From contig CAZSVL010000005.1 in assembly GCA_964610305.1 (NCBI GenBank), positions 14,815 to 78,814 on the forward strand: a stretch of 64,000 bases of DNA. The letters are read 5' to 3'. The stretch is from an uncultured Gammaproteobacteria bacterium (lineage in GTDB: Bacteria; Patescibacteriota; Patescibacteriia; Magasanikbacterales; JBBTXJ01). Shown piece by piece: positions 3,082 through 64,000 of the stretch (position 1 is its first letter; each line of letters opens with the position of its first letter). The translations under genes and the position numbers were made by a program. The notes beneath the pieces are model-generated. The model did no database searches. It was not told the DNA's origin and saw only the letters and a list, made by a program, of their open reading frames with translations.

Positions 3082-4119
3082 CTACAAACCAATTTTTTTC
3101 CTGGCTTTTATCATGCTCTTCTCTGCAATAAAATGAGCCTTTCTGTTTGCCAGCTTTGAGAGTACGTCTCTTTTCAGCAGACCTGCACGTTTTTTTCTGA
3201 AGTTGCCAAAGTAATCTGAAATTGAGCGTGCTGTTGTTTGTTTGAGGTCTTTGTAAGAGATGGATTGGCCAGTAAAGCGCATGTTGTCTTTTTCTGAGCC
3301 AAAGTATTCTAGTAGTTTCAGCAGGTTGTACGCTCCAGCTACTCCTTCATTTTTTCCGGCTCCTGGTTTGAGAATCCATTCCCCTTTCCATGCTACAGGG
3401 ATTTTTCCGGTGCTCTCTGTTTTGGCTTTCTTAATTTTTTCTGCAATTGTTTTTGGAGAGTCGCTTAGATTGATGACGTTTTTTTCGCCATGAGATTTAC
3501 TCATTTTTTTATGAGGAGCGGTAAGGCTCATAACACGTGGGGTAGGGGTAAGGATGGGTCTGGCCTCTGGAAAGGTCTTTCCGTATCTATTGTTAAACCA
3601 GCGCGCAATTTTTCTAGTGAGCTCTACGTGTTGTACTTGGTCTTCTCCAACAGGCACGTGCGTCCCGCCGTAGAGTAGAATATCGGCCGCCTGCAAAACA
3701 GGGTAACTAAAGAGTCCATTATTAATATTATTTTTTTGATCTAATGACTTATCTTTAAATTGAGTCATCCGTGAGAGCTCTGCAATGGGCGTAACGCAAT
3801 TAAACATCCAGCCCAGCTCTGTGTGTTGAGGCACGGCCGATTGCAAAAAGAAAACAGACTTGCGATTGTTAATGCCAAGAGCAAAAAGCTCTGCTGCCAT
3901 CATTTTTACATTTTTTTTGAGCTCCTTGCTTTCAGGCGCTTGCGTCAGCACGTGCAAATCAGCAATAAAAAAGAAGCACTCGTTTTTTGGATCATCTTGC
4001 AATTGCTTCCAGTAGCGCAGCGCACCTAAATAATTTCCGATGTGAAGCGGTCCGCTTGGCTGAATGCCAGATACAATAGTGTGTTTCATAGTAGTCTTAT
4101 TGTAATCCCATATAGACAT
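3082..4119 (-). CDS. trpS: tryptophan--tRNA ligase
   Basis: Class I HIGH motif (PSGPLHIGNYLGA) and KMSKS (HKKMSKSHG). Overall TrpRS-like layout. True start may be the internal MKHTIVSG. Confidence 0.85.
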   Translation of the reverse strand: MSIWDYNKTTMKHTIVSGIQPSGPLHIGNYLGALRYWKQLQDDPKNECFFFIADLHVLTQAPESKELKKNVKMMAAELFALGINNRKSVFFLQSAVPQHTELGWMFNCVTPIAELSRMTQFKDKSLDQKNNINNGLFSYPVLQAADILLYGGTHVPVGEDQVQHVELTRKIARWFNNRYGKTFPEARPILTPTPRVMSLTAPHKKMSKSHGEKNVINLSDSPKTIAEKIKKAKTESTGKIPVAWKGEWILKPGAGKNEGVAGAYNLLKLLEYFGSEKDNMRFTGQSISYKDLKQTTARSISDYFGNFRKKRAGLLKRDVLSKLANRKAHFIAEKSMIKARKKIGL

Positions 4120-4224: not shown

Positions 4225-5262
4225 ATGGAAAAGGAGGAGAAATTGGCAGAGCCAACAAGAAAGCAGCTGATAGCGCTTATGCAATTGCGTTTTGCGCCAG
4301 AGAATAGATTGTCCATTGATAGATGGCTGGCATACATAGCTGGTGTTTGTGGTGGGTTGATTGAAAAAGATGGACTGCAGCGCATCCTGCAGGGCGATCA
4401 CCCCAAAATTCAGATAGACATGGAATCAGTGGGTTTGGTGCCCGACATGCGAAGGTTTCAATTTTTTTGGAATCCCGTAGTTAGCGTTGAGCCTAGCGGT
4501 AAGTATGCCAACCAAGAGATTCTCTGCAGCGCTACGTATCCAGAAAACTGGCGTATGCTTCCAGTGGCAAGGCAAGCCGAGCTTTTAAAGCAGTTTTTTG
4601 ATGAGCTTGATGTCTCGCAGGTGCAGAAGGTTGCACAGGGGATTATGGTTCCTGAGGGTTTTGACGGCCTGGCAGTAATTCCAAAATTTGCAGCTATCGC
4701 AGATTTAGCTCATGACTACACGTTTCCTCCATTCAATGTTGCAATGAAGCGCTTGATGAGAGTTTTTAGCCAAGAATTTGAGGGATTTAAGCGCGACGCT
4801 TTTGCATGGTCTCCGGGCACCGCTGGACTATATGAGCCTACGAGAGCTTTTTTGGAGGAGTTGGCTGAGAGCACGCCAGGCGATTGTCTGGTGATGCCGG
4901 TTCAAACCGGCATACTTCATAGAGGTAGAAGTGTGCAGAGAGCGAGGGTGTGCTACACAGACGATGAGTATGGATTAGACATGTTTTCTGTGGGATGCAT
5001 ATTGCTTACCCATCAGGGGCGCTTGGCAGCTGACGCGCTGCATATCATCTGTCCGGGATCATCCGTTCAAAATTCTCTTCAGAGCCGAGTTGATTGGTCG
5101 TGCAATGGTGTTTGGCAAAAATCATCTTTGGTTGAACTTGTGCGACGCTCGAATTATAAACCCGTGAAAAACAGTGGGTGTGCAACTGCGCATTATCCAT
5201 TTAAAACCGGCGAAACGCAGTCGAGCACTGTGGATGAGAGCGCAAAGCTGCTAGAATTCTAA
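4225..5262 (+). CDS. hypothetical protein; paralog of the edge gene 1..719
   Basis: ORF-track start at 4042 overlaps trpS, so the in-frame ATG at 4225 (MEKEEKLAE) was chosen. Shares EGFDGLAVIPK, TPGDCLVMPVQTG and C-terminal KLLEF with the first gene. Confidence 0.45.
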   Translation: MEKEEKLAEPTRKQLIALMQLRFAPENRLSIDRWLAYIAGVCGGLIEKDGLQRILQGDHPKIQIDMESVGLVPDMRRFQFFWNPVVSVEPSGKYANQEILCSATYPENWRMLPVARQAELLKQFFDELDVSQVQKVAQGIMVPEGFDGLAVIPKFAAIADLAHDYTFPPFNVAMKRLMRVFSQEFEGFKRDAFAWSPGTAGLYEPTRAFLEELAESTPGDCLVMPVQTGILHRGRSVQRARVCYTDDEYGLDMFSVGCILLTHQGRLAADALHIICPGSSVQNSLQSRVDWSCNGVWQKSSLVELVRRSNYKPVKNSGCATAHYPFKTGETQSSTVDESAKLLEF

Positions 5263-5658: not shown

Positions 5659-7485
5659 TTACACTTCTATCACCACCGGAAGCACCATCGGCCTCTTGCG
5701 CGTTTTTTTAAACAACATGCTGCCTACTTCGTCCCGGATTTTATTTTTGAGAATGTGAGGGTCTGTGCCCGCCTTTTTATCATGCGCTGTTGCTAGTTTT
5801 TTCACTGATCTTCTTAGGTTTTCTATGAGCTCTCTGTTTTCTTTGAGGTACACAAAGCCGCGGCTTATAATGTCTGGATTATGAATCAGCTTTCCAGATT
5901 TTGTATCAAGCGTGCAGATCACCACCACCATGCCTTCTTCTGCTAGCACTTGTCTGTCGCGCAATACAATTTGGCTTTCGTTTGATACGCCCAGGCCATC
6001 AACAAATACATAGTCTGTTACCACCTTTTTCTTGGTGAGCTCTCCGTTTCCTTTTTTATCAAACTCCATTATCTGGCCGTTGTCTGCCACATAGATGTGA
6101 TCCTTTGGCCAACCAAGACTCTCTGCCACGGATGCGTTTTCGCGTAGCAAAAAGTGATTTCCTTCAATAGGAATATAATATTTTGGCTGGAAAAGCGTAA
6201 TCATGAGTTTTAGATCTTCTTTTTTTCCATGACCGCCCGCGTGCACGTCCATCATAGAGTAGTGTATTACGCGCGCCTCTTTTCTGTAGAGCGTGTCCAT
6301 GAGTCTTTGCACAGAGCGCTCGTTTCCGGGAACCACAGAAGAAGAAAAGATTACCGTATCGGTCTTTCTAATTTTCACGCTGCGGTGATCGCCGTTTGCA
6401 ATACGCATAAGTGCCGCGCGGCTCTCGCCTTGCGCGCCGGTGCATACAATTACAATTTTATCATCATCGTAGTTATCAATTTTGTTGATAGGGATGATGG
6501 TGTCTTTTTTTATGGGCCTAATAAAGCCAAGTTCTCTGGCAATCTCTACGTTTGTTTTCATGCTGTAGCCTTCAAACGCAACTTTTTTGCCGTGGACTTC
6601 CGCCAGATCTACAATTTGTTTTACGCGCGATAGCAAAGACGCAAACGTTCCAATAATAAGTCTGCCCGGCGCTTTTTCTATGATCCTGTCCAGCGTCTCG
6701 CCAATTTCTTTTTCTGAAATCTGATGGCCGGGGCGGTTGGCGTTTGTAGAGTCTCCCATAAGCGCCAAAACACCCTCTGATCCCACCTTAGCAATTCTCT
6801 GCAGATCTGCTGGTGGTTCACCAACCGGGTGAAAATCAAATTTCCAGTCTCCGGTGTGGATTACTGTGCCGTTTGGTGTTTTTACTACAATGCCGGCAGA
6901 GTCTGGAATGTTATGGTTGATGTGAAAGAAGCTCACTTCAAAATGTCCCAACTTAAGAACGTCTGTAATTTTTGACACCTTTATTTTAAGCGGAGGAGTA
7001 TTAAAATCTGTCTGGCGTTTTTTAATGATGCCGGCAGATGTTGGCAGGGCATAAATAGTTGGGTTTCCAATGTTAGGAACGGTGTGGGGGATTGCGCCAA
7101 TGTGGTCATAGTGACCGTGCGTAATGATAACGCCACGGATATTTTTTTCTTTTCCTTTTAGATAGCTCATGTTTGGCACAATGTAATCTATGCCAGGCAT
7201 GTCTTCTTCTGGAAATTGAAGACCCATGTCTATGAGGATGATGTCATTTTTGTACTCCAAAAGAGTGCAGTTGCGTCCAACCTCTTCTAATCCGCCAAGC
7301 ACAATAACGCGTAGCTTGTCGCCGCTTGGTGGTGGGACGGCAGCGGGCGTCCGTCTCTGTGGAGCTCGCCTTTTGTTTTGTCCCTGTCTGTTGTGAGGGC
7401 GCCGCTTTTGATGCGATTTTGCGCCCGTGGTTTTTCCGGCTGGTCGTCTTTGTTGCTGACGCCGCGGAGATGATTTAGTTGTCAT
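5659..7485 (-). CDS. rnj: ribonuclease J (metallo-beta-lactamase/beta-CASP RNase)
   Basis: HxHxDH motif (VIITHGHYDHIGA) and RNase J-like domain order. About 55-aa basic N-terminal extension (PRRQQQRRPAGKTT...). Confidence 0.85.
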   Translation of the reverse strand: MTTKSSPRRQQQRRPAGKTTGAKSHQKRRPHNRQGQNKRRAPQRRTPAAVPPPSGDKLRVIVLGGLEEVGRNCTLLEYKNDIILIDMGLQFPEEDMPGIDYIVPNMSYLKGKEKNIRGVIITHGHYDHIGAIPHTVPNIGNPTIYALPTSAGIIKKRQTDFNTPPLKIKVSKITDVLKLGHFEVSFFHINHNIPDSAGIVVKTPNGTVIHTGDWKFDFHPVGEPPADLQRIAKVGSEGVLALMGDSTNANRPGHQISEKEIGETLDRIIEKAPGRLIIGTFASLLSRVKQIVDLAEVHGKKVAFEGYSMKTNVEIARELGFIRPIKKDTIIPINKIDNYDDDKIVIVCTGAQGESRAALMRIANGDHRSVKIRKTDTVIFSSSVVPGNERSVQRLMDTLYRKEARVIHYSMMDVHAGGHGKKEDLKLMITLFQPKYYIPIEGNHFLLRENASVAESLGWPKDHIYVADNGQIMEFDKKGNGELTKKKVVTDYVFVDGLGVSNESQIVLRDRQVLAEEGMVVVICTLDTKSGKLIHNPDIISRGFVYLKENRELIENLRRSVKKLATAHDKKAGTDPHILKNKIRDEVGSMLFKKTRKRPMVLPVVIEV

Positions 7486-20813: not shown

Positions 20814-21080
20814 ATGGCTTGCGTCTACATTTTAAGATCAGAAAGTGGAAGGTATTATGTGGGCAGTGCGATTGATGTTGATTCTCGTTTGAGACACCAT
20901 AAGGGCGGATTTACTCATTCAACTGCTCGCATGGGTAAGTTGGAGGTTGTGTTAGTGCAGCAGTATGAGACTCTGAAAGAAGCACGTTTCGTTGAAAGAA
21001 GGATAAAGAGAATGAAAAGGAAAGATTACATTGATAAGATGGTGGCCGACGGAAAAATCAAAATTAAGATGCGTGAGTAG
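20814..21080 (+). CDS. GIY-YIG nuclease family protein (about 88 aa), whose stop codon overlaps the tRNA 5' end
   Basis: VYILRSESGRYYVGSAIDVDSRLRHHKGG is a GIY-YIG motif. Track start at 20742 overlaps the pseudouridine synthase gene; ATG 20814 preferred. Final codons ATG CGT GAG TAG are the first 10 nt of the tRNA. Confidence 0.65.
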   Translation: MACVYILRSESGRYYVGSAIDVDSRLRHHKGGFTHSTARMGKLEVVLVQQYETLKEARFVERRIKRMKRKDYIDKMVADGKIKIKMRE

Positions 21081-21143
21081 CTCAACCGGCAGAGCGCGAA
21101 GCTTATACCTTCGTGGTTCCAGGTTCAAGTCCTGGCTCACGCA
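21071..21143 (+). tRNA. tRNA, anticodon UAU (Ile, AUA-decoding), 73 nt, no encoded CCA
   Basis: Manual cloverleaf: 7-bp acceptor stem GCGTGAG/CTCACGC, D-stem GCTC/GAGC, anticodon stem CGAAG/CTTCG with loop C-U-UAU-A-C, T-arm CCAGG-TTCAAGT-CCTGG, and 5-nt variable loop. All stems are Watson-Crick. Confidence 0.7.
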
Positions 21144-21195
21144 CGAGTAGCCCCGACGCCCGAAGGGGTCGGGGGGCCGACTGAAACGTCGGCCC

Positions 21196-21258
21196 TCAAC
21201 CGGCAGAGCGCGAAGCTTATACCTTCGTGGTTCCAGGTTCAAGTCCTGGCTCACGCAC
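21196..21258 (+). repeat. 63-bp perfect direct repeat of the tRNA 3' portion (D-loop to discriminator); partial pseudo-tRNA
   Basis: Identical to 21081-21143. It lacks the 5' acceptor strand and a D-stem partner. The 52-bp spacer holds two small GC hairpins. Confidence 0.8.
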
Positions 21259-54969: not shown

Positions 54970-55800
54970 ATGCGTGTAATGACGAAGCTATCTCCACAAG
55001 AAGTGCAAAAATTCAGAAAAATAGTTTGGGATTACTACAAAAAAAGCGGGCGGAGTTTTCCGTGGCGCAAAACGCGTAGTCCATACAGAATATTGGTTTC
55101 TGAAGTCATGCTTCAGCAAACGCAGACCGAGCGCGTCATGAAATTTTATGGGCCTTTTTTAAAGATGTTTCCTAGTTTTAAAGTGCTTGCTAAGTCGCCA
55201 CTGAAAAAAGTGCTCAACGCGTGGCAGGGGCTTGGGTACAACAGAAGAGCACTGTCTCTTCATAAGATGGCAGATCAAGTGGTAACGGAATCTGGCGGCA
55301 GACTCCCAAAAAGCGTGGAGAGTCTTATGCATCTGCCGGGTATTGGCGCCTACACGGCAAATGCCATCCGAGCTTTTGTACATGATTTGCCAGCAGTTTT
55401 CATTGAAACAAACATTCGCTCCGTCTACATTCACCATTTTTTTTCAAAAAAGAAGAAAGTAAGCGACAAAGAAATAGAAAAATTGGTGGAGAAAACACTA
55501 GATAAAAAAAGACCCAGAGAATGGTATTACGCCCTCATGGACTACGGTGTTCATCTAAAAAAAGTGCACGGCAACCCAAACAAGCGTAGCAAGCATTACA
55601 CCAAGCAATCAAAATTTGAGGGATCGGTACGGCAAGTTAGGGGGGCGATAATTAGAATATTGACTGGTAGCATGGGATTAACAAAGGCAGCTTTATTAAA
55701 AACACTTTCCTTTCCACCAGATGTCATAGAAATAGTTTTGGAACAGTTGCAAAAAGAGGGATTTCTTGATAAAAAGGGAAAGCGTTATGTAATAAGATAA
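54970..55800 (+). CDS. HhH-GPD superfamily base-excision DNA glycosylase (endonuclease III/MutY-like, no Fe-S cysteine cluster seen)
   Basis: EVMLQQTQTERV and LPGIGAYTANAIRAFV helix-hairpin-helix motifs. The C-terminal CxxxxxxCxxCxxxxxC motif is absent. Confidence 0.6.
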   Translation: MRVMTKLSPQEVQKFRKIVWDYYKKSGRSFPWRKTRSPYRILVSEVMLQQTQTERVMKFYGPFLKMFPSFKVLAKSPLKKVLNAWQGLGYNRRALSLHKMADQVVTESGGRLPKSVESLMHLPGIGAYTANAIRAFVHDLPAVFIETNIRSVYIHHFFSKKKKVSDKEIEKLVEKTLDKKRPREWYYALMDYGVHLKKVHGNPNKRSKHYTKQSKFEGSVRQVRGAIIRILTGSMGLTKAALLKTLSFPPDVIEIVLEQLQKEGFLDKKGKRYVIR

Positions 55801-55801
55801 A

Positions 55802-56521
55802 ATGGACTCAACACTCACAATAAAAAATCTTACGAAGAAATACGGTGAAAAAGTTGCTCTAGATAACATCTCGCTAGAAATAAAGAAGGGCGAGTTTTTT
55901 GGTTTTTTGGGGCCTAATGGAGCCGGGAAGACTACCACTATAAACTGTATTGTGGGGATTAATACTATTCAGAGCGGCTCAATAAATTTGTTTGGTTTGG
56001 ATGTAGTTAAAGATTATAGAGAGGCGCGCGCAAAAGTGGGCATCTCTCCTCAAGAGTTTAATGTTGATATTTTTGCGGCGCCAGAGAAAATTTTGTATTA
56101 CGTTGGTGGCTACTATGGCATGAGCAAAAAAGAGAGGAATAAGCGCATAGATGAGCTCTGCGAGCAGCTTGGTTTGCAGGAGCACAGAGATAAGCCCTTT
56201 AGAACACTCTCTGGTGGGCTCAAGCGTAGAGTTATGCTGGCACGCGCTCTTATTCATGATCCAGAGCTTTTGATTTTAGATGAGCCAACGGCCGGAGTAG
56301 ACGTTGAGCTGCGGCTTGAGCTGTGGGAGCATCTGCGGCGCATAAACAAGCAAGGAAAAACTATTTTGTTTACCTCTCATTATTTGGAAGAAGTGGAAAA
56401 ACTCTGCAGCAGAATCGCTATTATTAATAAGGGAAAATTGGTTGCGGTAGAGAACACATCAGAGATGACAAAAGACGGCACGCTTGAAAAGCGGTACTTG
56501 GAATTAACCAAAAAAGTATGA
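55802..56521 (+). CDS. ABC transporter ATP-binding protein (ABC-2 type exporter)
   Basis: Walker A GPNGAGKTT, signature LSGGLKRRVMLA, Walker B LLILDEPTAGVD. Confidence 0.85.
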   Translation: MDSTLTIKNLTKKYGEKVALDNISLEIKKGEFFGFLGPNGAGKTTTINCIVGINTIQSGSINLFGLDVVKDYREARAKVGISPQEFNVDIFAAPEKILYYVGGYYGMSKKERNKRIDELCEQLGLQEHRDKPFRTLSGGLKRRVMLARALIHDPELLILDEPTAGVDVELRLELWEHLRRINKQGKTILFTSHYLEEVEKLCSRIAIINKGKLVAVENTSEMTKDGTLEKRYLELTKKV

Positions 56522-57279
56522 ACTGGGCTGGAATGCTAACACTTTTGGATAAGGAATTTCAAAGGACGCGGCGCGTTTTTGTGCAGACACTTATTACGCC
56601 GTGGATATCCGCACTTTTGTACATATTCATCTTTGGCTACATTGTGGGTCAGCGGATAGATCTTATCTCTGGCATGCGCTACATAGATTTTGTTCTGCCC
56701 GGCATTGTGATGATGAATATTATTCAAAGCTCTTTTGGACAGGCTGGTTTCTCCCTTTATTTTCAGCGGTTTGCTCGGCATATAGAAGAGATGCTGGTGG
56801 CGCCGTTTTCATATTTGGAGATGGTTATTGGTTTTGTGCTAGGCGGCATAGCCCGTGGAATGCTGGTGGGAATAGGTGTGTATGTAATTTCAATATTTTT
56901 CTCTGCTGCAAACATGGCCCACGTTGGACTGTTTCTTCTCTATGGGGTGGCGGTCTCAATAATATTTAGCTTTTTGGGGCTTATTGTTGGTTTGTGGGCC
57001 GAGCAATTTGAGCATCTTTCTATTCTATCCACTTTTGTAATTACACCTCTCATATATGTTGGTGGCGTCTTTAACTCAATTGACATGCTGCCGCCGGCGC
57101 TTCAGACGCTTGTGCGCTTTAATCCTTTCTTTTACTTTGTAGATGGGCTGCGCTACTCAATGCTCGGAATCTCAGAGGCTAACACGGCACTTGGGTGGGT
57201 TGTCATTGTATCGCTAATAATTGTTTTAGGTTCTATCGTATGGTATCTTTTCTACAAAGGTTGGAAATTAAGAAATTAA
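56518..57279 (+). CDS. ABC-2 family transporter permease
   Basis: Six TM segments. 4-nt overlap with the ATPase gene. Confidence 0.7.
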   Translation: MNWAGMLTLLDKEFQRTRRVFVQTLITPWISALLYIFIFGYIVGQRIDLISGMRYIDFVLPGIVMMNIIQSSFGQAGFSLYFQRFARHIEEMLVAPFSYLEMVIGFVLGGIARGMLVGIGVYVISIFFSAANMAHVGLFLLYGVAVSIIFSFLGLIVGLWAEQFEHLSILSTFVITPLIYVGGVFNSIDMLPPALQTLVRFNPFFYFVDGLRYSMLGISEANTALGWVVIVSLIIVLGSIVWYLFYKGWKLRN

Positions 57280-57280
57280 T

Positions 57281-58237
57281 ATGATGCAAGACGCAATCAA
57301 GAATTTTTCAAAACAATTTGAGTGGGAACCAAAGATGGAAAACGGTTCCGTAGAGGATCATGACCGGTTTATTGTCTGTGGGATGGGTGGATCTGCACTA
57401 GCGGCGGATATTCTCTCTGCGGTGGATCCAATGCTGGATATAATTGTTCATAGAGATTACGCACTTCCTTCTCCTCATGATATAAACAAGAGGCTTATTA
57501 TTTTTAGCTCTTATTCTGGGAACACGGCAGAGGTTTTGGACGCGTTTGATTTAGCTCTTGAACATAAAGAAGATCTTGCAATGGCGGTACTTACCACGGG
57601 CGGAGAGTTGCTCAAAAAGGCGCAAGACAACAATGTGTCTTACATTCAAATGTCAGACACCGGTATTCAGCCGCGTTCTGCCCTTGGATTTAATTTGCGC
57701 GGGCTACTTGCCTTTGTAAACAGGCCATCACTCATAAAAATGGTAGAAGAGTTGTCAGAGGAGTTGGGAGATTATAAGAAAGAAGGAGTTGAATTGGCTG
57801 GGCAGCTGCAGGACAAGATTCCTGTTATTTATTCATCAAGCACCAACAGAGCCATTGCCTACAATTGGAAAATTAAACTTAATGAAACCGGAAAAGTCCC
57901 CGCATTTTACAATGTTGTTCCAGAGCTTAATCATAATGAAATGACCGGGTTTGATGTGAGTGAAAAAGCAGGTGGCTTGCTTAAGAACTTAGCGTTTGTT
58001 TTTCTTACTGATGAAGATGACGATAAGCGGAACCAAAAGAGGTTTGAAGTGCTGCAGAAACTCTACAGAGAGCGAGGCATGACCGTAATAAAAAAACCCC
58101 TAGGGGGAGAAGGGTTTGCAAAAGTATTTAACTCGCTTTTACTCGCCGATTGGACAGCGGTCACGCTAGCCGAATACTACGGGCACGAATCAGAGCAGGT
58201 GCCAATGGTGGAGGAGTTTAAAAAACTTATAGCCTAG
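57281..58237 (+). CDS. bifunctional phosphoglucose/phosphomannose isomerase (SIS domain, archaeal-type PGI/PMI)
   Basis: FIVCGMGGSALAADIL SIS motif; size and layout of the PGI/PMI family. Confidence 0.55.
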   Translation: MMQDAIKNFSKQFEWEPKMENGSVEDHDRFIVCGMGGSALAADILSAVDPMLDIIVHRDYALPSPHDINKRLIIFSSYSGNTAEVLDAFDLALEHKEDLAMAVLTTGGELLKKAQDNNVSYIQMSDTGIQPRSALGFNLRGLLAFVNRPSLIKMVEELSEELGDYKKEGVELAGQLQDKIPVIYSSSTNRAIAYNWKIKLNETGKVPAFYNVVPELNHNEMTGFDVSEKAGGLLKNLAFVFLTDEDDDKRNQKRFEVLQKLYRERGMTVIKKPLGGEGFAKVFNSLLLADWTAVTLAEYYGHESEQVPMVEEFKKLIA

Positions 58238-59384
58238 CAACTTCCGCGGCGTCAGCCGCGGTTTTTGTAAGCTGCTCCACGTCAAGAGCTTGCTCTGCTA
58301 TATGAATTTCACTGAGTTTTGCCTTGGTTTCTACCTGCCGTGGCGCAAAAAGAGTGCAGCAGTCATCATGCGGCTGCTGAGAAATCTCCAATGTCCCAAT
58401 GCTCTGGGCTTTTTTTATTATATCCTTTTTATCAAATCCAATGAGCGGGCGCAGTACTGGCATGCTCAGAACTTCAGAAGTGGCGGTCATATTTTCTATG
58501 GTCTGTGATGCCACTTGGCCCAGCGCCTCTCCGGTGATAATAGCTTTTGCTTTCTCTTTTTGTGCGATGCGCTGCGCAATACGCATCATAAAACGACGAT
58601 AGAAAATAATGCGGAATTTTTCTGGTACACTCATCATTATTTTTCTTTGAACATCAGCAAAAGCCACTTCATAAAGCTTCATGTTTGGTTGAAATTTTTT
58701 GAGCACCTCGGTGAGCTCGCGGACTTTTTCAATGCTGAATTCAGAGGTAAACGGGGCAGAGTGAAAATGCACGGGAATAATCTGAGCGCCGCGCTTCATA
58801 ATCTGCCACGCAGCCACAGGAGAGTCTATGCCGCCACTGAGCATCACCACCATTTTTCCTGATACCCCAACAGGCAGACCGCCCGGACCCTGAATTTTTT
58901 TTGTGTAGATAAATGCGGAGCCGTTTGCAATTTCAATAAAACAAGTGTTATCTGGCTTTTCTAGTTTTACGGCTAGGCTGTGTTTTTTATTTATTGCAGC
59001 ACCAACACGAACGTTAATTTCCTGAGAGGAAAGCGGAAAATTCTTATCAGATCTCTGCGTGGTCACTCTAAAGTTTCCAGCTTTGTCACTCATCTGCTCA
59101 AGCGCCTGCTTTTCAATAGCTTCTATATCAAAAGAGACTTTGCTAGCAAAGGCAAAATTGGCGATCCCAAACACATGGCGCAGAGCCTGCGTTACTTTTT
59201 CCACATTAGCTTCTGGTTTAAGCACTAAAAGAAGACGTCCATATAGACGCTTAACATCAACAAGAGATCCCGCAGCTTGATCCTTTAGAACACTCTTTAC
59301 ATTAGAAATCAGCTGCTTTTCAAAGACAATTCTATTCTTGCCCTTCAGACCAATTTCATCGTAGTGCACAATAGCATTTTGCAT
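58227..59384 (-). CDS. thiI: tRNA 4-thiouridine(8) synthase
   Basis: THUMP-like N-terminus and PP-loop VVMLSGGIDSPVAAW (SGGxDS). Confidence 0.8.
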   Translation of the reverse strand: MQNAIVHYDEIGLKGKNRIVFEKQLISNVKSVLKDQAAGSLVDVKRLYGRLLLVLKPEANVEKVTQALRHVFGIANFAFASKVSFDIEAIEKQALEQMSDKAGNFRVTTQRSDKNFPLSSQEINVRVGAAINKKHSLAVKLEKPDNTCFIEIANGSAFIYTKKIQGPGGLPVGVSGKMVVMLSGGIDSPVAAWQIMKRGAQIIPVHFHSAPFTSEFSIEKVRELTEVLKKFQPNMKLYEVAFADVQRKIMMSVPEKFRIIFYRRFMMRIAQRIAQKEKAKAIITGEALGQVASQTIENMTATSEVLSMPVLRPLIGFDKKDIIKKAQSIGTLEISQQPHDDCCTLFAPRQVETKAKLSEIHIAEQALDVEQLTKTAADAAEVARL

Positions 59385-59434
59385 AGCCGCAGTATTACAT
59401 ATTTTTCGCTAAATATCAAGCTATTTGACGTGTG

Positions 59435-59463
59435 TTGACAAATAGGAGATTATATGTTATAGT
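59435..59463 (+). promoter_or_regulatory. promoter TTGACA-17-TATAGT
   Basis: 59435-59440 and 59458-59463, 10 nt upstream of the ATG at 59473. Confidence 0.45.
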
Positions 59464-59472
59464 GGTTCGTTT

Positions 59473-61326
59473 ATGAAATACGTTAAATCTAACACAGAGG
59501 CTCTCCAGGAGAGGCACAAAAAAGTGTACGAGGATTTTTTTGCCCAGCAAGAGGTGGTGATATCTTCAGGCTTTTGTTATTCTATGGCTTCTGGTCTTTC
59601 TTGGCGTGTTGGTGCACCTGCGATTCACCACAAGCTTCCTTTTAAATGCTACGTTGGAATAAGTAGGGGCGAGGCGAAAGGTAAGATTACCGCAGGTAAG
59701 GTGCAGTATTTTTCTGCTCGGTTGAATCAATTTAGAGAGCCGGATTTTGATCCTGTAAGATGGGATGTTGGGATTCCAAGAGTGGAAAAACTTTTAAATA
59801 ATAAATTAGGAAAAGATTTTGACGGCTGTACGGTTTCTGTTTTGATGGAGAGATCAGAGGATAGAGGAATTGACACAGCACTTTCACAGACCATTATTGC
59901 TGCCATATATTTAAGGTATAAGTTGGCTACCGTAACTGAGATAAATAATTTTGCTCGGCTTTCTCACAAAGAGGTGGCGCAGAAGCAAACGCCAATTTCT
60001 AAGTTGTACAGGGAAATTCACACTGAAGGGCTGAAGATTTCTTCTGTTATCCAAATGGGTTCCGCAGCCGGTTCCTCTGGTTTTTCAAATCTTATGTATT
60101 CTGAATTTCCCACCGTACATGTAACTGAAGAGAGAGCCGGAAGTGTGAGGAAACCATATGGGGACCAATCCTACGAGCCTATTAATGTTCTTGACGATGT
60201 GCAGAGAGTAGAAAAAATGAAATGGTGGGGTTATAGGCTTAATGAGCTTTCAGATGTGCAGGGAGAGTTTCCCCTTGAGGTTGTGAGCATCTTTCCGGGA
60301 TCAGCGCGTATTTTATATTCTGCCTCTGCCTACACCTCTAGCGTGCTTTTACCTAGCTTTGATACGTTACGCGACGACATAAAAGAGATGTTTTCTGATA
60401 TAGATACCAATGATAACAAACGCATCCCTCCATTTTTAAAGTATGTAACTCAAGATGGTAAGTATTGGCAAGATTATGCAAGAGGACAAGTTTATTCTCG
60501 TCTGTATCTTTTGCGTGCTCTAGTAAATTTATACAAAAATAAGCTATCTTCAGCTACAACCGAGGATTTTTTGGAAGCCATAAAGTCAATGTTTGGGCTG
60601 AATGCGCCATTTGAAGAGACGCCGTCACGTAATATTCAAACCATTGTTCGAGCTCTTAGGCGTAAGGCAAATCAAAAAGGTATTCCTATTGCTGTTAGAT
60701 CTCACTTTTGGGGAAAGCAGGATGGAAACATTTTAGTATATTTTCCTCCGAAAAAATTTAGAGACGCAATAAATGAGGTGGTAGAAGACATGAAACAAGA
60801 AGTAGATTCTTCTATCCATATAGATTTTAGCTCTTGGCTTGATGGGTGGGGCACAGACGGTATCCGTGTAGAGCAATCCATATCAGACGGAGTATTTTCT
60901 GATTTTACCAACCAAAATGCAAAGCGCGTGATTCAATATGGGCCTAAGGGGATAAAGACAGATATTGTAGAGCGCGTCTCTCGCAGCAAATACGACATTC
61001 TTCTGAGTAAAATTGACGACAAGATATTTGTAGGTGGGCAGGAGTGTACCTCTAAGGATTTACCATCTCAAAAGGCAACCATAGAGATACTATCTGTTTT
61101 AATTGAAAAAGCGGGGATTGCTGTTTCAAATGCTGATTTGCCTAAAAATACTTACACATCATACAGAAATGAGCTTCAGGGCAAGATAATTACGCCCCTA
61201 TGTAAGCTGGTAGAGGATAGATTAGAAAAGAATTTGGCGCTTAAAATAGAGGGTAAATTAATGAATTTTGACGTAACTCTGGATTTGGGCAACCTTAAAA
61301 TTGGTGTTTTAGATAAGATTTCCTAA
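59473..61326 (+). CDS. large hypothetical protein (617 aa) with a possible GHMP-kinase-like glycine-rich motif
   Basis: MGSAAGSSGFS resembles the GHMP kinase PxGSGLGSSAA loop. Otherwise no recognised domains. Confidence 0.4.
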   Translation: MKYVKSNTEALQERHKKVYEDFFAQQEVVISSGFCYSMASGLSWRVGAPAIHHKLPFKCYVGISRGEAKGKITAGKVQYFSARLNQFREPDFDPVRWDVGIPRVEKLLNNKLGKDFDGCTVSVLMERSEDRGIDTALSQTIIAAIYLRYKLATVTEINNFARLSHKEVAQKQTPISKLYREIHTEGLKISSVIQMGSAAGSSGFSNLMYSEFPTVHVTEERAGSVRKPYGDQSYEPINVLDDVQRVEKMKWWGYRLNELSDVQGEFPLEVVSIFPGSARILYSASAYTSSVLLPSFDTLRDDIKEMFSDIDTNDNKRIPPFLKYVTQDGKYWQDYARGQVYSRLYLLRALVNLYKNKLSSATTEDFLEAIKSMFGLNAPFEETPSRNIQTIVRALRRKANQKGIPIAVRSHFWGKQDGNILVYFPPKKFRDAINEVVEDMKQEVDSSIHIDFSSWLDGWGTDGIRVEQSISDGVFSDFTNQNAKRVIQYGPKGIKTDIVERVSRSKYDILLSKIDDKIFVGGQECTSKDLPSQKATIEILSVLIEKAGIAVSNADLPKNTYTSYRNELQGKIITPLCKLVEDRLEKNLALKIEGKLMNFDVTLDLGNLKIGVLDKIS

Positions 61327-61346
61327 AAAGCAGACATAGACGAGGA

Positions 61347-61382
61347 TAAAATAATGGCTCAACAAAGCCATTATTTTGTTTC
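61347..61382 (+). terminator. intrinsic terminator AAAATAATGGCT-CAACAA-AGCCATTATTTT plus GTTTC
   Basis: 12-bp perfect stem, read directly. Confidence 0.5.
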
Positions 61383-61476
61383 TCAGATTTTTCAGTATTT
61401 TTCATTCTCAGATCCGTTAAGATAGTAACAAAGATCTGACGCGGTGTTGGATCAGGTTCCTTCAAGGAGTTCAGTT

Positions 61477-61584
61477 ATGTCGTGTGGTCTCGGTGGTCCC
61501 AACAGCAATCCGTTTGCCCCCAACCCCTACATCACGCCTCCCGCTATCCTGCCTGAGGATGCGCGGCGGATCCTGGGGCAGTAA
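61477..61584 (+). CDS. small ORF, 35 aa, MSCGLGGPNSNPFAPNPYITPPAILPEDARRILGQ
   Basis: AAGGAG SD 7 nt upstream of the ATG. Cys/Gly/Pro-rich. Below the 60-aa cutoff of the ORF track. Confidence 0.35.
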   Translation: MSCGLGGPNSNPFAPNPYITPPAILPEDARRILGQ

Positions 61585-61633
61585 GGGGCAGAGCGGAAAG
61601 GCTTATTGAGTGAGGGCGCAGAGTTCACTCTAG

Positions 61634-61698
61634 GGGATAGGCGTGCGTATCTATCCCCCTTTATACCAAAGCGGAAGTGGTCCGATTTGGTTAGAGGG
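61634..61698 (+). repeat. bipartite hairpin element copy 1 (hairpin A GGGGATAG/CTATCCCC, then CCCUUUAUACC...GGUUAGAGGG long hairpin)
   Basis: Shared with copies 2 and 3. The base of the second hairpin is conserved and the apical parts differ with compensating pairs. Confidence 0.6.
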
Positions 61699-61717
61699 TG
61701 CAAAACAGGAGAGAAAA

Positions 61718-61879
61718 ATGGCACTGGGAATTTTCTGCGCACTTGCTGCTGCCGCGGCCGGTGCGGCTGCAGCAGCTGCTGTAGATGAGGTAACCAGCGG
61801 GTGCGGATGTGGTCATGGGCGCTATGGCCCCACGTACTGTAGTGAACATGCGCCGCCTGATGATTATCCAACTGATTAA
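61718..61879 (+). CDS. small ORF, 53 aa, MALGIFCALAAAAAGAAAAAAVDEVTSGCGCGHGRYGPTYCSEHAPPDDYPTD
   Basis: AGGAGAG SD 6 nt upstream. Ala-rich hydrophobic N-terminus, then a Cys/Gly-rich acidic C-terminus. The track ORF 61643..61879 starts inside the hairpin element. Confidence 0.4.
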   Translation: MALGIFCALAAAAAGAAAAAAVDEVTSGCGCGHGRYGPTYCSEHAPPDDYPTD

Positions 61880-61916
61880 CATGAGGCAAGTATTTACCCC
61901 AAAAGAGGAGGGTGTT

Positions 61917-62027
61917 ATGGATTGTGGTGGATGCATTCCGGGGCCGTATACCGGCTCGTCTGATCATTTGTTGAATGATGATTTGTGCACAAATGAGCTT
62001 ATGGTGGGTACCAGTGTATTATCCTGA
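61917..62027 (+). CDS. small ORF, 36 aa, MDCGGCIPGPYTGSSDHLLNDDLCTNELMVGTSVLS
   Basis: AAGAGGAGGG SD 4 nt upstream. CGGC...P motif similar to the 61477 peptide. Confidence 0.4.
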   Translation: MDCGGCIPGPYTGSSDHLLNDDLCTNELMVGTSVLS

Positions 62028-62131
62028 GCCTACTAGTAATTGCCATTTCTGTGGGACATCTCATGACTCTAGGAGTACGTGTCCCACGATTCCGCGCTGC
62101 TTGGGAGTGATGAGTGGTTGGGAGAATCCTA

Positions 62132-62230
62132 ATGTGTGATCCGATTACCTTGTTGGTTCTCGCTGGCGCTGCAGCGATCGCGACGTCCGCCGCACTTTCG
62201 TCATCGGATGATGATGACTGTCACAATTGA
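62132..62230 (+). CDS. small ORF, 32 aa, MCDPITLLVLAGAAAIATSAALSSSDDDDCHN
   Basis: GGGAGAA SD upstream. Ala-rich hydrophobic stretch then SSDDDDCHN. Preceded by GTGGGACA...TGTCCCAC hairpin. Confidence 0.35.
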   Translation: MCDPITLLVLAGAAAIATSAALSSSDDDDCHN

Positions 62231-62236
62231 GTAGCT

Positions 62237-62296
62237 GGAGGACAATGTGTCCTCCCCTTTATACCTCATCAGAGCGGTTCTGATGAGGTTAGAGGG
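62237..62296 (+). repeat. bipartite hairpin element copy 2 (GGAGGACA-AUG-UGUCCUCC, then CCCUUUAUACCUCAUCAGA-gcggu-UCUGAUGAGGUUAGAGGG)
   Basis: Starts 6 nt after the stop of the 62132 ORF. Confidence 0.6.
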
Positions 62297-62314
62297 CAGC
62301 ACAAGGAGTTTGCC

Positions 62315-62422
62315 ATGCGTTCAGACATTGATGTGATCTTGGACAACACTTCCCCTACGCGGATTCACCGCGACAACATGGGTCAGATTGTGCGGATTGG
62401 TCCACCGATCCTGCGACCTTAG
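62315..62422 (+). CDS. small ORF, 35 aa, MRSDIDVILDNTSPTRIHRDNMGQIVRIGPPILRP
   Basis: AAGGAG SD 7 nt upstream. Confidence 0.35.
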   Translation: MRSDIDVILDNTSPTRIHRDNMGQIVRIGPPILRP

Positions 62423-62437
62423 CCGTAGTTCATACTT

Positions 62438-62499
62438 GGAGGATACGCTTGTATCCTCCCCTTTATACCGCACCAGAGATTTCTGGTTCGGTTAGAGGA
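62438..62499 (+). repeat. bipartite hairpin element copy 3 (GGAGGAUAC-gcuu-GUAUCCUCC, then CCCUUUAUACCGCACCAGA-gauu-UCUGGUUCGGUUAGAGGA)
   Basis: Starts 16 nt after the stop of the 62315 ORF. Followed by further hairpins and a T7 run at 62565-62571. Confidence 0.6.
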
Positions 62500-62632
62500 T
62501 AACGCAATTAAGATACGCGAAGCTACGCAATTGCATATGGCGCGCGTGCAAGGAATTGCATACGTTTTTTTCGCTAGCATGCAGGGTAACCGTATTGCCG
62601 GCTCCAGACAGGTTTTTGGTAAAATTTAGCAA

Positions 62633-62654
62633 CAGCCGCCTTTGGCGGTTTTTG
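62633..62654 (+). terminator. short hairpin GCCGCC-UUUG-GCGG plus U5
   Basis: Read directly. Weak. Confidence 0.3.
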
Positions 62655-62658
62655 CACT

Positions 62659-62832
62659 ATGTACACAAGACTCAAATGCATAAAATGCAATGCAGACGCG
62701 CGTGGCTATGAATGTGCCATGTGCGGCCTTATCATGTATGCGTTTGATGCATTCCATGAGTGTGGTAGTGGTCAAGTACTTCCGCGCTGCGGCGGATGTT
62801 TGACAAATGAGGTGGAATGCGATTGTATATAA
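62659..62832 (+). CDS. small Cys-rich ORF, 57 aa (CxxC x3 plus CxC), zinc-ribbon-like
   Basis: MYTRLKCIKCNADARGYECAMCGLIMYAFDAFHECGSGQVLPRCGGCLTNEVECDCI. No obvious SD. Confidence 0.3.
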   Translation: MYTRLKCIKCNADARGYECAMCGLIMYAFDAFHECGSGQVLPRCGGCLTNEVECDCI

Positions 62833-62855
62833 AAAAGAAAAGAGAGGAGGAAAGG

Positions 62856-63482
62856 ATGAAAAGTGTAATCTTGTTTGACGTGGGTGGAGTGATAGATGGT
62901 GGTGGTGCGGTTTCGGGTAATCAAACTACGCCAGCTCTTTTTTCTGAGAGGTTCGGTGTTGATCCGCAGGCTTTTATTCTAGCTCGTAGGAAAGCATGGC
63001 GTCCTTTAAAACTCGGGAAGATTTCTGTAGTAGATTTTTGGACCTCCATTTTCAACGAGTTGGAAATTCCGGTTGATATCGCCGCAGCAATGGAAGTGTA
63101 TGAGGGTACGATAAGCGCGGTTCCTGGAATGCTGGATCTTGTGTCAGAATTGAATGACGGGGGCTATACTCTGGCGCTAGCCAACAATGAGGGTCGCGAG
63201 TTTGATGATTTGCGTGAAAGTAAGTTCGATTATTTTCGGTTATTCAAACACCGTTTTCCTTCCTGGAAGTTAGGTCTGGGCAAGCCCGACCCTGCTTATT
63301 TCCAGGAAGTGTTGAAACGTGGTAATTGGAGTCCGCAGCAATGCATTTTTGTGGATGATAAAATGATTAACGTGCAAGCCTCAATAAAGGAAGGCATTAC
63401 AGGAATTCATTGTGAAGCAAACGCAAGGATTCTTCGCTCAGCTCTTATCAGCTTGGGTGTTAAACTATTCAATCAGGCTTAA
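62856..63482 (+). CDS. HAD-superfamily hydrolase (subfamily IA-like)
   Basis: Motif I LFDVGGVI, GKPDP, and FVDD. AGAGGAGGAAAGG SD. Track start 62817. Confidence 0.65.
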   Translation: MKSVILFDVGGVIDGGGAVSGNQTTPALFSERFGVDPQAFILARRKAWRPLKLGKISVVDFWTSIFNELEIPVDIAAAMEVYEGTISAVPGMLDLVSELNDGGYTLALANNEGREFDDLRESKFDYFRLFKHRFPSWKLGLGKPDPAYFQEVLKRGNWSPQQCIFVDDKMINVQASIKEGITGIHCEANARILRSALISLGVKLFNQA

Positions 63483-63518
63483 TGCACCCGTCTGAGGAAC
63501 ACTCGCAAGGAGGATGAT

Positions 63519-64000
63519 ATGAAAAAGCTTGACTTTCTGGCATTCGTATCTGCAATGCGCGGCCCCTTGTATCAGTGTGGGCAGATTGCACTGAAGTTAA
63601 AGGGTAAGACGGTCAAGAGGGATAAAGCTCCTGATTCGTCCGTCCAGCTAAGCACGGCTGTAGGTGATGTAGATGAGTTGTGTCAGGAAATAATTCTAAT
63701 GCGCGCAGCAGAGGTTACGCCGTGGATTGAGATTCGTTCTGAGGAACAGAATGTTTGTCCTAAGGCAATCCGAGAGTTGTTTGAAAAAAACAGCTCCCGG
63801 TTTACACTAGTAATTGACCCACTTGACGGGACTGATGAATTTTTTAGAGCTGGGAATGAGTTTGGTCATATGGTTGGAATCCATGACAAACAAAGCGGTC
63901 GTATGAGCTGTGGAATGATATTTATTCCTGAAGAACAAGTGTTGTATTTCGCAATCCGTGGTATGGGTGCGTTTACGGCTTCTGGGTTGTTTGGTGAAGT
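63519..64000 (+). CDS. inositol monophosphatase / CysQ-family phosphatase, 3'-truncated at window edge
   Basis: VIDPLDGTDEF is the IMPase-family metal-binding signature. AAGGAGG SD. No stop before position 64000. Confidence 0.55.
   Translation, partial: MKKLDFLAFVSAMRGPLYQCGQIALKLKGKTVKRDKAPDSSVQLSTAVGDVDELCQEIILMRAAEVTPWIEIRSEEQNVCPKAIRELFEKNSSRFTLVIDPLDGTDEFFRAGNEFGHMVGIHDKQSGRMSCGMIFIPEEQVLYFAIRGMGAFTASGLFGE

Follow-up and report, generated by a model that had tools for sequence, protein, structure and literature searches.

An element of ~60 bases that folds into two hairpins recurs between the cistrons of a small-protein operon in an uncultured bacterium; three copies lie in the window, that is, the whole 64,000-nucleotide (nt) stretch of contig CAZSVL010000005.1 analysed here, and four more lie in one related genome (locus L004). 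The seven copies share a conserved, bipartite RNA structure that forms on the sense strand and is set precisely between cistrons. This element most likely functions as a protein-recognised, cis-acting module on a polycistronic mRNA, acting on its cutting, its stability or its translation. The first-pass annotation of the region, which reported the three window copies, offered a recombination site, a processing signal or a regulatory RNA as explanations; a processing signal or regulatory RNA fits the evidence best, and the recombination site does not. All of the sequences quoted in that annotation were found where it placed them, on the + strand.

The element and its seven copies

The copies and their parts are as follows (window positions unless L004 is named):

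61633-61697, + strand: element copy 1 (hairpin A 61633-61658, hairpin B 61659-61697); model score 49.1 bits
61633-61658, + strand: hairpin A of copy 1, arms GGGGATAGG/TCTATCCCC; stem strands GGGGAUAGG / UCUAUCCCC, 8-nt loop
61659-61697, + strand: hairpin B of copy 1, lower stem CUUUA-U-ACC / GGU-UAGAGG; apex AAAGCGGA / UCCGAUUU
62237-62295, + strand: element copy 2 (hairpin A 62237-62255, hairpin B 62256-62295); model score 53.5 bits
62237-62255, + strand: hairpin A of copy 2, arms GGAGGACA/TGTCCTCC; stem strands GGAGGACA / UGUCCUCC
62256-62295, + strand: hairpin B of copy 2, apex UCAUCAGA / UCUGAUGA
62438-62498, + strand: element copy 3 (hairpin A 62438-62459, hairpin B 62460-62498); model score 51.8 bits
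62438-62459, + strand: hairpin A of copy 3, arms GGAGGATAC/GTATCCTCC; stem strands GGAGGAUAC / GUAUCCUCC
62460-62498, + strand: hairpin B of copy 3, apex GCACCAGA / UCUGGUUC, with a C.U mismatch common to the ortholog L004-d
L004 12206-12271, + strand: copy L004-a
L004 12508-12571, + strand: copy L004-b, ahead of the MRSDID ortholog, like window copy 2
L004 12707-12768, + strand: copy L004-c
L004 13580-13637, + strand: copy L004-d, followed by the conserved noncoding stretch that also follows window copy 3

Hairpin A is a G+C-rich stem of 7-10 base pairs (bp) with a loop of 3-8 nt; its closing G-C is the sole invariant pair. Purines predominate in the 5' arm, which often reads GGAGGA, and pyrimidines in the 3' arm, often UCCUCC. 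In all seven copies, hairpin B follows after a gap of 0-1 nt; it is 39-44 nt long and always has 17-20 pairs. Its lower stem, 5'-CCUUUA-U-ACC / GGU-UAGAGG-3', contains a bulged U and a U-G wobble; above it, an apex of free sequence adds 8-10 more pairs and closes with a loop of 3-5 nt. Because A and B abut with at most one nucleotide between them, the two can stack coaxially as a dumbbell, from which the 5' and 3' flanks would leave side by side.

As first described, the lower stem of B is invariant in the three window copies, and it is also kept across the L004 copies apart from a few changes. The statement that the apical stems of B stay complementary holds in general, with one mismatch each in copy 1 (G.A) and copy 3 (C.U); the 3' arm of the copy 3 apex is corrected here to TCTGGTTC, the next G being part of the conserved base. 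The two cores of the lower stem, CCCTTTATACC and GGTTAGAGG, are found in the window exactly three times each and solely at the element sites; by our own arithmetic, ~0.03 exact matches to an 11-mer core are expected by chance.

The four additional copies come from a genome in which the 617-amino-acid (aa) gene upstream of the window copies has a homolog (64% identical, 623 aa) on a 76.6-kb ENA contig, of which 21.9 kb was fetched as L004. This locus is syntenic with the window, that is, ThiI (minus strand) and the 623-aa gene are followed by small open reading frames (ORFs). We spotted the copies by reading L004 11840-13920; a covariance model built from the three window copies alone then retrieves exactly these four, with scores of 37-56 bits (E = 5e-7 to 2e-11), and nothing further above 12 bits in the 39 kb scanned. 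A third source, the 4.9-kb Logan contig L001, is identical to the source genome of the window and contributes no variation.

Covariation and the folding strand

The window copies fold as two adjacent hairpins both alone (z = -2.8, -6.9 and -7.4, + strand) and with 40-60 nt of flanking sequence; when the folding of both strands is compared, as the first-pass annotation had advised, the + strand is more stable than the - strand in all three. That annotation had also remarked that structure is kept while sequence changes. The observation is strengthened by the four copies in the second genome: these covary, although a lack of covariation in additional copies had been named as the result that would count against the claim. 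Even positional orthologs (copy 2 and L004-b, copy 3 and L004-d) differ in the sequences of their stems and have the same structure.

In the structural alignment of the seven copies, 175 of 180 cells (97.2%) are standard pairs. When partners are slid by 1-3 columns, pairing falls to 41-56%, and in 500 column shuffles the observed value is never reached, whichever of five measures is used; the covariation exceeds chance. Double compensatory changes occur in 15 of the 30 pairs, nine of them among the ten of hairpin A and six in the B apex. In L004-b, an insertion in the lower stem is compensated on the opposite arm (CUUUUA / UAGAAG vs CUUUA / UAGAG elsewhere). Across the seven copies there are 15 G-U pairs, including one U-G that is invariant in all of them, and no A-C pairs. 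The folded strand is therefore the sense (+) strand, since on the minus strand all of these wobbles would be C.A mismatches; wobble content of this kind is typical of RNA and therefore indicates RNA rather than DNA. A fixed lower stem beside a free apex is most naturally read as selection on a recognised sequence or shape. Gene conversion does not explain this pattern, because it would have homogenised the apex together with the lower stem.

Position of the element in the operon

The signals in the window are bacterial, that is, a TTGACA-17-TATAGT promoter at 59435-59463, strong Shine-Dalgarno (SD) sites, an extracytoplasmic function (ECF) sigma factor and RNase J. The genes and signals that surround the three window copies are these:

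59473-61326, + strand: 617-aa gene, with a GHMP-kinase fold and an extra C-terminal domain
61348-61377 (T run to 61385), + strand: canonical terminator of the 617-aa gene
61379-61397, + strand: motif TTTCTCAGATTTTTCAGTA, conserved in five loci in which the flanking protein is only 37-64% identical
61418-61423, + strand: -10-like TAAGAT
61477-61584, + strand: small ORF, 35 aa, SD site
61718-61879, + strand: small ORF, 53 aa, SD site
61917-62027, + strand: small ORF, 36 aa, SD site
62132-62230, + strand: small ORF, 32 aa, SD site, stop TGA
62315-62422, + strand: MRSDID ORF, 35 aa, SD site, stop TAG
62499-62658, + strand: conserved noncoding stretch, ~160 nt, 88% mean column identity to L004 13628-13812 (alignment of 62490-62670, which reaches back into hairpin B and forward into the next ORF)
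62634-62654, + strand: canonical intrinsic terminator, AGCCGCC-TTT-GGCGG-TTTTT
62659-62832, + strand: Cys-rich 57-aa ORF, zinc-ribbon-like with several CxxC pairs, SD-less, its start codon abutting the terminator

All seven copies are intergenic in one orthologous small-ORF operon and have the same orientation as its genes; the operon is limited by a conserved promoter motif at one end and a canonical terminator at the other. The motif (consensus TTTCTCrrATwTTTCAGTA, followed 20-21 nt on by a -10-like hexamer) lies just downstream of the GHMP-like gene in each of five loci:

Window 61379-61423: promoter motif
L004 11925-11970: promoter motif
L006 ~3345-3395: promoter motif
L009 ~3745-3795: promoter motif
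L052 ~4372-4415: promoter motif

Since the motif is conserved across such diverged loci, it probably serves the small-ORF operon as an activator-dependent promoter or operator, and we place all three window elements within one presumed transcript of ~1.2 kb. In the window, TTCTCAGAT recurs 25 nt beyond the promoter motif.

The spacing of the copies relative to the genes is narrow. Six of the seven begin about 7-16 nt past a stop codon, and for the seventh (copy 1) the distance, from the stop of the 35-aa ORF, is 50 nt. Where an ORF follows (five copies), hairpin B ends about 18-19 nt before its ATG in four cases and 12 nt before it in the fifth, so that the 3' end of B is just upstream of the SD site. 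Thus, copy 1 is ~20 nt before the ATG of the 53-aa ORF, and copy 2 lies between the TGA of the 32-aa ORF (~6 nt) and the ATG of the MRSDID ORF (~19 nt). Copy 3 starts ~15 nt past the MRSDID stop codon (TAG), with the conserved noncoding stretch behind it; this copy and L004-d are the two that precede the stretch and no conserved ORF, indels shifting the frame between the genomes.

The small ORFs are, at least in part, real genes. The MRSDID ORF and its L004 ortholog differ synonymously in 15 codons and non-synonymously in seven, the pattern of purifying selection on the encoded peptide; together with the 57-aa ORF, it encodes one of the two best-conserved small proteins of the gene island (z = 26 and 31), and the 57-aa and MCDPI ORFs are clearly conserved with L004.

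Several other explanations for the recurrence of the element at these positions were considered and rejected. An archaeal TATA box in TTTATA is inconsistent with an organism that uses sigma-70-type promoters and SD sites, and a promoter needs no compensatory spacer changes. Inspection of the lower stem reveals no tandem G.A pairs of a kink-turn. Stop-codon read-through with a selenocysteine insertion sequence (SECIS) does not fit mixed upstream stops (TAA, TGA and TAG) and read-through frames that close immediately. Coding across the element is contradicted by frames that differ in start, stop and length, by the 1-nt insertion that shifts the frame in L004-b, and by apex residues that are unrelated where pairing is kept.

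We also observed that the loop of hairpin A contains ATG, GTG or TTG 4-7 nt past the SD-like purine arm in five of the seven copies (copies 1-3, L004-b and L004-d); these NTG codons open tiny frames across hairpin B, the lengths of which are not conserved. In copy 1 and L004-c, the frame that stays open through the element is also that of the ORF downstream. Hairpin A could also sequester the ribosome-binding site of such a tiny, non-conserved frame over B, as a translational coupling relay.

A proposed processing or stability module

In the reading that we prefer, with a probability of about 45%, the invariant lower stem would be the recognition or cleavage site of a double-strand-specific RNA-binding protein or endoribonuclease, with an RNase III-type enzyme or an operon-specific factor as the candidate. 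Cutting or binding at this stem would split the ~1.2-kb operon transcript into segments; the upstream segment would then be shielded from 3' exonucleases by hairpin A at its 3' end, and the downstream segment from RNase J by what is left of hairpin B at its 5' end. Each small ORF might in this way acquire a different stability or translation, and the noncoding RNA after copy 3 would be freed or regulated likewise.

An RNase III substrate has approximately two helical turns of double-stranded RNA, and hairpin B has this length on its own (17-20 pairs in all seven copies); stacked on A, it would form a helix of ~25-30 bp. In Bacillus subtilis, the 5'-to-3' exonuclease activity of RNase J is blocked by 5' structure. 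The enzyme is encoded in the window:

5659-7485, - strand: RNase J gene, with beta-CASP and RNase J C-terminal domains

From this gene it follows that the organism has Bacillus-type 5'-to-3' mRNA decay, as is relevant to a model in which a 5' hairpin acts as a stabiliser. The two copies that precede a noncoding RNA favour processing or stability over a purely translational role.

The closest parallels are the intercistronic RNase III hairpins of phage T7 early mRNA (R0.3-R1.3) and the 5'/3' stabiliser hairpins of polycistronic bacterial mRNAs. Like the element, the T7 hairpins are repeated sense-strand structures of about two helical turns between cistrons, and their sequences are common near the recognised part of the stem; in both T7 and stabiliser hairpins, the message upstream is made more stable by the hairpin that remains at its 3' end, as we propose for hairpin A. 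Unlike the T7 hairpins, the element consists of two abutting hairpins that form a dumbbell, has an invariant lower stem with a bulged U and a U-G pair instead of an internal loop, and lies in a cellular operon for proteins of 32-57 aa; its cleavage is a proposal.

A number of points weigh against this reading. The structural alignment of the seven copies was built by hand to fit the structure; a small number of duplications in two related genomes gave rise to the copies, and the statistics therefore count cells and not independent events. We infer cleavage, binding and the transcription start alike. No Ribonuclease_3 domain was found among the window ORFs scanned (the window being a small part of the genome), and no candidate binding protein was identified in the window. 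An RNase III cut within the stem of B would leave no B hairpin as a 5' cap, so the stabiliser function depends on the position of the cut. The element is known so far from two related genomes only. Finally, the fixed distance to the start codon suits a translational operator equally well.

Possible translational control or termination

As a translational operator, the lower stem of B would be bound by a protein (e.g., the MRSDID peptide or the Cys-rich 57-aa protein) that blocks or promotes binding of the 30S subunit, with feedback on each cistron; E. coli thrS and the phage coat proteins provide precedents for operators of this type. The invariant portion of the element is the part of B closest to the SD site, the 18-19-nt distance to the ATG recurs in four of the five copies with an ORF behind them, and the MRSDID and 57-aa proteins are the best conserved of the island; an MRSDID-like sequence is found again beside the GHMP-like gene in a distant relative (see below). 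However, window copy 3 and L004-d, two of the seven copies, precede the noncoding stretch and no conserved ORF; hairpin A would have no role, yet it always abuts B; the predicted accessibility of the SD site differs between copies; and scans against PHROGs, PADLOC and NCBIfam detected no RNA-binding domain in any island protein. The thrS, phage coat-protein and RegA operators resemble the element in being specific structured sites just upstream of an SD site at a fixed distance; they differ from it in that the element is repeated 3-4 times per operon, stands before a noncoding RNA in two copies, and has its recognised part in the lower stem and not in a loop. We regard an operator as possible but less likely than processing or stability, with a chance of a little over one in five.

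Alternatively, hairpin A and the C(C)UUUAU that follows it could be a leaky intrinsic terminator or attenuator that ends some of the transcripts at each cistron and so creates a gradient of polarity, with B present only to pair with the AU-rich tract and mask it when transcription reads through. Small-peptide operons often have hairpins behind their precursor genes. Hairpin A has the composition, size and position for this function (G+C-rich, 7-10 bp, shortly past the stop codon in six of the seven copies), and the conserved 5' strand of B opens with UUU(U)AU. The tail, however, begins with C and has 3-4 U in its first 8 nt, and none of the copies is reported by a terminator scan that requires at least five T in eight, whereas canonical terminators with runs of 5-7 T are present at the same locus (61348-61385 and 62634-62654). 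Termination would not need the invariant 3' strand (GGUUAGAGG), the bulged U or the conserved U-G, and it leaves the strict abutment of 0-1 nt and the conserved length of B unexplained. We therefore consider a leaky terminator unlikely. That the element might be an ordinary intrinsic-terminator family had been named in advance as a result that would overturn the first description; it is not one, since A is followed by C(C)UUU(U)AUACC and no U-run.

Processive antitermination sites may also be compared: the put sites of phage HK022, like the element, have two hairpins of ~65 nt. Unlike put, lambda nut and EAR, each of which is a single promoter-proximal copy, the element is present in 3-4 copies along the operon, the first being downstream of the first ORF; an Rfam search of 61300-62900 matched no put or nut sequence model.

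Distribution of the element

As far as can be seen, the element is confined to one locus and one lineage (two related uncultured genomes). In ~150 kb of the window and related loci, no further copy was found in the window (model R1), in L004 (R1 and R2) or in the loci of seven more distant relatives. Ten loci near remoter homologs of the GHMP-like gene (seven distinct; L006-L010 and L050-L053) lack the element, and share with the window just the promoter motif and generic hairpins.

We scanned larger collections for the exact core, using the pattern CCCTTTATACC-N16-26-GGTTAGAGG. In 596 Gb of species-representative genomes, the single match (a Pedobacter metagenome-assembled genome) is without hairpins and is attributed to chance, as is the single match in the JGI metagenomes, which is also without hairpins and falls within an ORF of the opposite strand (L003 5490-6116). 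A looser scan of viral sequences gave 39 loci, none of which scores above 17 bits with the element model, and blastn of the island against phage and plasmid collections gave no match. The element matches no catalogued RNA family: Rfam 15 at gathering thresholds finds only tRNA in the whole window, and at E-values up to 10 finds nothing that overlaps the elements in 61300-62900, where the best hits elsewhere score 10-18 bits against gathering scores of 45-100.

These searches bear on the reading of the element as a selfish miniature repeat (of the REP/BIME, BOX or Correia type) that has spread locally and affects the mRNA only incidentally. The element is indeed short, palindromic, intergenic and modular, and the B apex of L004-a is 79% similar to that of L004-c despite differing flanks, as if B had been copied as a unit; REP/BIME and BOX are likewise modular palindromes of operon intergenic spaces that are able to stabilise upstream mRNA. 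Against this, all seven copies are in one orthologous operon, with none elsewhere in the 64-kb window, the 22-kb L004 or the seven distinct remoter loci; all are on the + strand, without target-site duplications; their spacing to stop codons, SD sites and start codons is precise; the exact core has no real copies in the genomes or JGI metagenomes scanned; and no RAYT- or IS200/IS605-type gene was seen among the ORFs scanned. The element differs from REP/BIME and BOX in the same respects, that is, in its single locus, its one orientation, its strict spacing to translation signals and the absence of any transposase found. Within the sequence available, it is not a dispersed repeat of the REP or miniature inverted-repeat transposable element (MITE) type, and we consider a selfish origin the most improbable of the explanations discussed here.

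Gene order and possible recombination

The order of the modules is [..MCDPIT] E2 [MRSDID] E3 [noncoding] in the window and Eb [MRSDID] Ec [..MCDPIS] Ed [noncoding] in L004 (E, element copy). Gene order thus differs, with the MRSDID gene and the Cys-peptide block exchanged, and the breakpoints are in or beside the elements, because the elements nearly fill the intergenic spacers. This would be expected if the element were the single-stranded-DNA recombination site of an integron-like system, in which a recombinase swaps strands in the core between A and B and so shuffles cassettes of small genes. A weak mosaicism points in the same direction: the A hairpins that follow MRSDID are 0.77-0.82 alike and the B apices before the noncoding stretch 0.75, a hint that hairpin A goes with the upstream gene and the B apex with the downstream sequence. 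The copies form an array in direct orientation with the ORFs, and the base of B, CTTTA(T)AC...GTTAGAG, loosely resembles the R'' (RYYYAAC) and R' (GTTRRRY) sites of attC, with one extrahelical base on the R''-side arm.

In attC sites, the bottom strand is folded and recombined, there is an unpaired central spacer, and 2-3 bases are extrahelical (PMC2727003). The element departs from this description at each point. Its top strand folds (15 G-T vs no A-C), whereas attC sites recombine as the bottom strand (PMC2727003), and in DNA its invariant G-T wobble would be a mismatch that weakens the fold; it has no unpaired central spacer and a single extrahelical base. The 5' side reads CTTTATACC in five of the seven copies, with a T interrupting AAC, CTTTATCC in L004-a and CTTTATTCC in L004-c, and AAC is intact in none. 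The 3' side is GTTAGAG or GTTAGAA in five of the seven, with a last base that is not Y; it is GCTAGAG in L004-c, where GTT is lost, and GTTGAGT in L004-a. Hairpin B, at 39-44 nt, is below the size range of attC sites.

The genes give no support either. A Pfam scan of ORFs of at least 120 aa in 54970-64000, together with the called genes across the 21.9 kb of L004, found no integrase, and none was found in 20 further window ORFs (those at 22-48 kb lie outside the scan); among the genes checked around the site there is no tyrosine recombinase, and the neighbouring gene encodes a GHMP-kinase fold. The differences in mosaic similarity are small and come from 20-nt sequences, and the same pattern would be given by short-homology recombination between repeated cores or by linkage of modules to their genes.

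The likeness to attC is therefore one of layout: a direct-orientation array between short ORFs, a conserved imperfect-hairpin base with a variable top and an extra base on the 5' arm, and a gene order around the sites that varies between genomes. In its folded strand, in the lack of an AAC/GTT inverse core and of a central spacer, in its one extrahelical base instead of 2-3, and in a B hairpin of ~40 nt with an additional hairpin A and no integrase found nearby, the element is unlike attC. A recombination site, which the first-pass annotation had listed, is accordingly very unlikely. There is a similarly slight chance that the element belongs to an analogue of integrons that is unrelated to attC/IntI, with top-strand dumbbells, a core between A and B, and recombination that is integrase-independent or distantly encoded; if true, this would be a cassette system that shuffles the genes of very small proteins in an uncultured lineage.

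Neighbouring genes and other features of the window

The AlphaFold model of the 617-aa protein, from a 28-sequence alignment, has a predicted local distance difference test (pLDDT) score of 91. By Foldseek, its nearest matches are galactokinase and mevalonate kinase (E = 1e-10), and the first ~450-480 residues have the GHMP-kinase fold; six of the 28 family members match Pfam GHMP_kinases_N, although the 617-aa ORF itself has no Pfam family. As modelled, the protein is neither a recombinase nor a nuclease, and its C-terminal domain (~485-617) looks by eye like an OmpR/PhoB-type winged helix. Word-indexed protein searches returned only the protein itself and two relatives (one at 64% and one, without DNA, at 39%), even with the 28-sequence profile. 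The family is large and uniform in length, with 631 representatives of 50%-identity clusters at E <= 1e-3, each of ~600-620 aa.

The MRSDID peptide and its relatives are located as follows:

Window 62315-62422: MRSDID ORF
L004 12591-12698: MRSDID ortholog
L052 4477-4668: ORF containing an MRSDID-like sequence

L052 is from a distant relative of higher GC content; the MRSDID-like sequence is the C-terminal half of a 63-aa ORF that is the first called after the GHMP-like gene. The kinase-like protein and the MRSDID peptide may be functional partners.

The island consists of variable Pro/Gly/Cys-rich peptides of 30-70 aa:

Window 61477-62230: small-peptide island
L004 12028-13572: small-peptide island
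L006 3464-4290: small-peptide island

Some of these peptides have a hydrophobic, Ala-rich N-terminus (e.g., MALGIFCALAAAAAG.. and MCDPITLLVLAGAAA..), and the gene content and order of the island vary between relatives. The PHROGs, PADLOC and NCBIfam scans of the island proteins gave nothing significant, and a protein search with the 57-aa ORF returned only that ORF itself.

The noncoding stretch and terminator before the 57-aa ORF are arranged as in a leader or riboswitch-like attenuator, or as for an independent small RNA; the stretch has no match in Rfam. It contains GGUAACCGUA, a 10-mer that also occurs near the 3' end of 16S rRNA; this may be a coincidence.

Two further features of the window are remote from the element. 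The first is a tRNA-Ile (anticodon UAU) with a partial second copy 42 nt on; most of this copy, between the D-arm and the 3' end, matches the first tRNA exactly, but its 5' acceptor strand is degenerate. It is a local tandem partial duplication. The second is an unbroken run of ~20 co-directional ORFs (26 kb), many with overlapping starts and stops.

21071-21144, + strand: tRNA-Ile (anticodon UAU)
21186-21257, + strand: partial second tRNA copy, Rfam tRNA score 30.5 bits
22021-48359, + strand: run of co-directional ORFs

Implications

The practical weight of the element is limited by its presence in two related, metagenome-derived genomes. If the proposed function is correct, it would represent an uncatalogued class of intercistronic RNA element, a coaxial dumbbell in which an invariant lower stem marks a specific protein-RNA contact, and it would organise the expression of an operon for proteins of 32-57 aa in an uncultured bacterium. 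Such an element would be a compact natural insulator or processing module between cistrons, and it would provide a handle on the regulation of small-protein genes, which are largely invisible to annotation.

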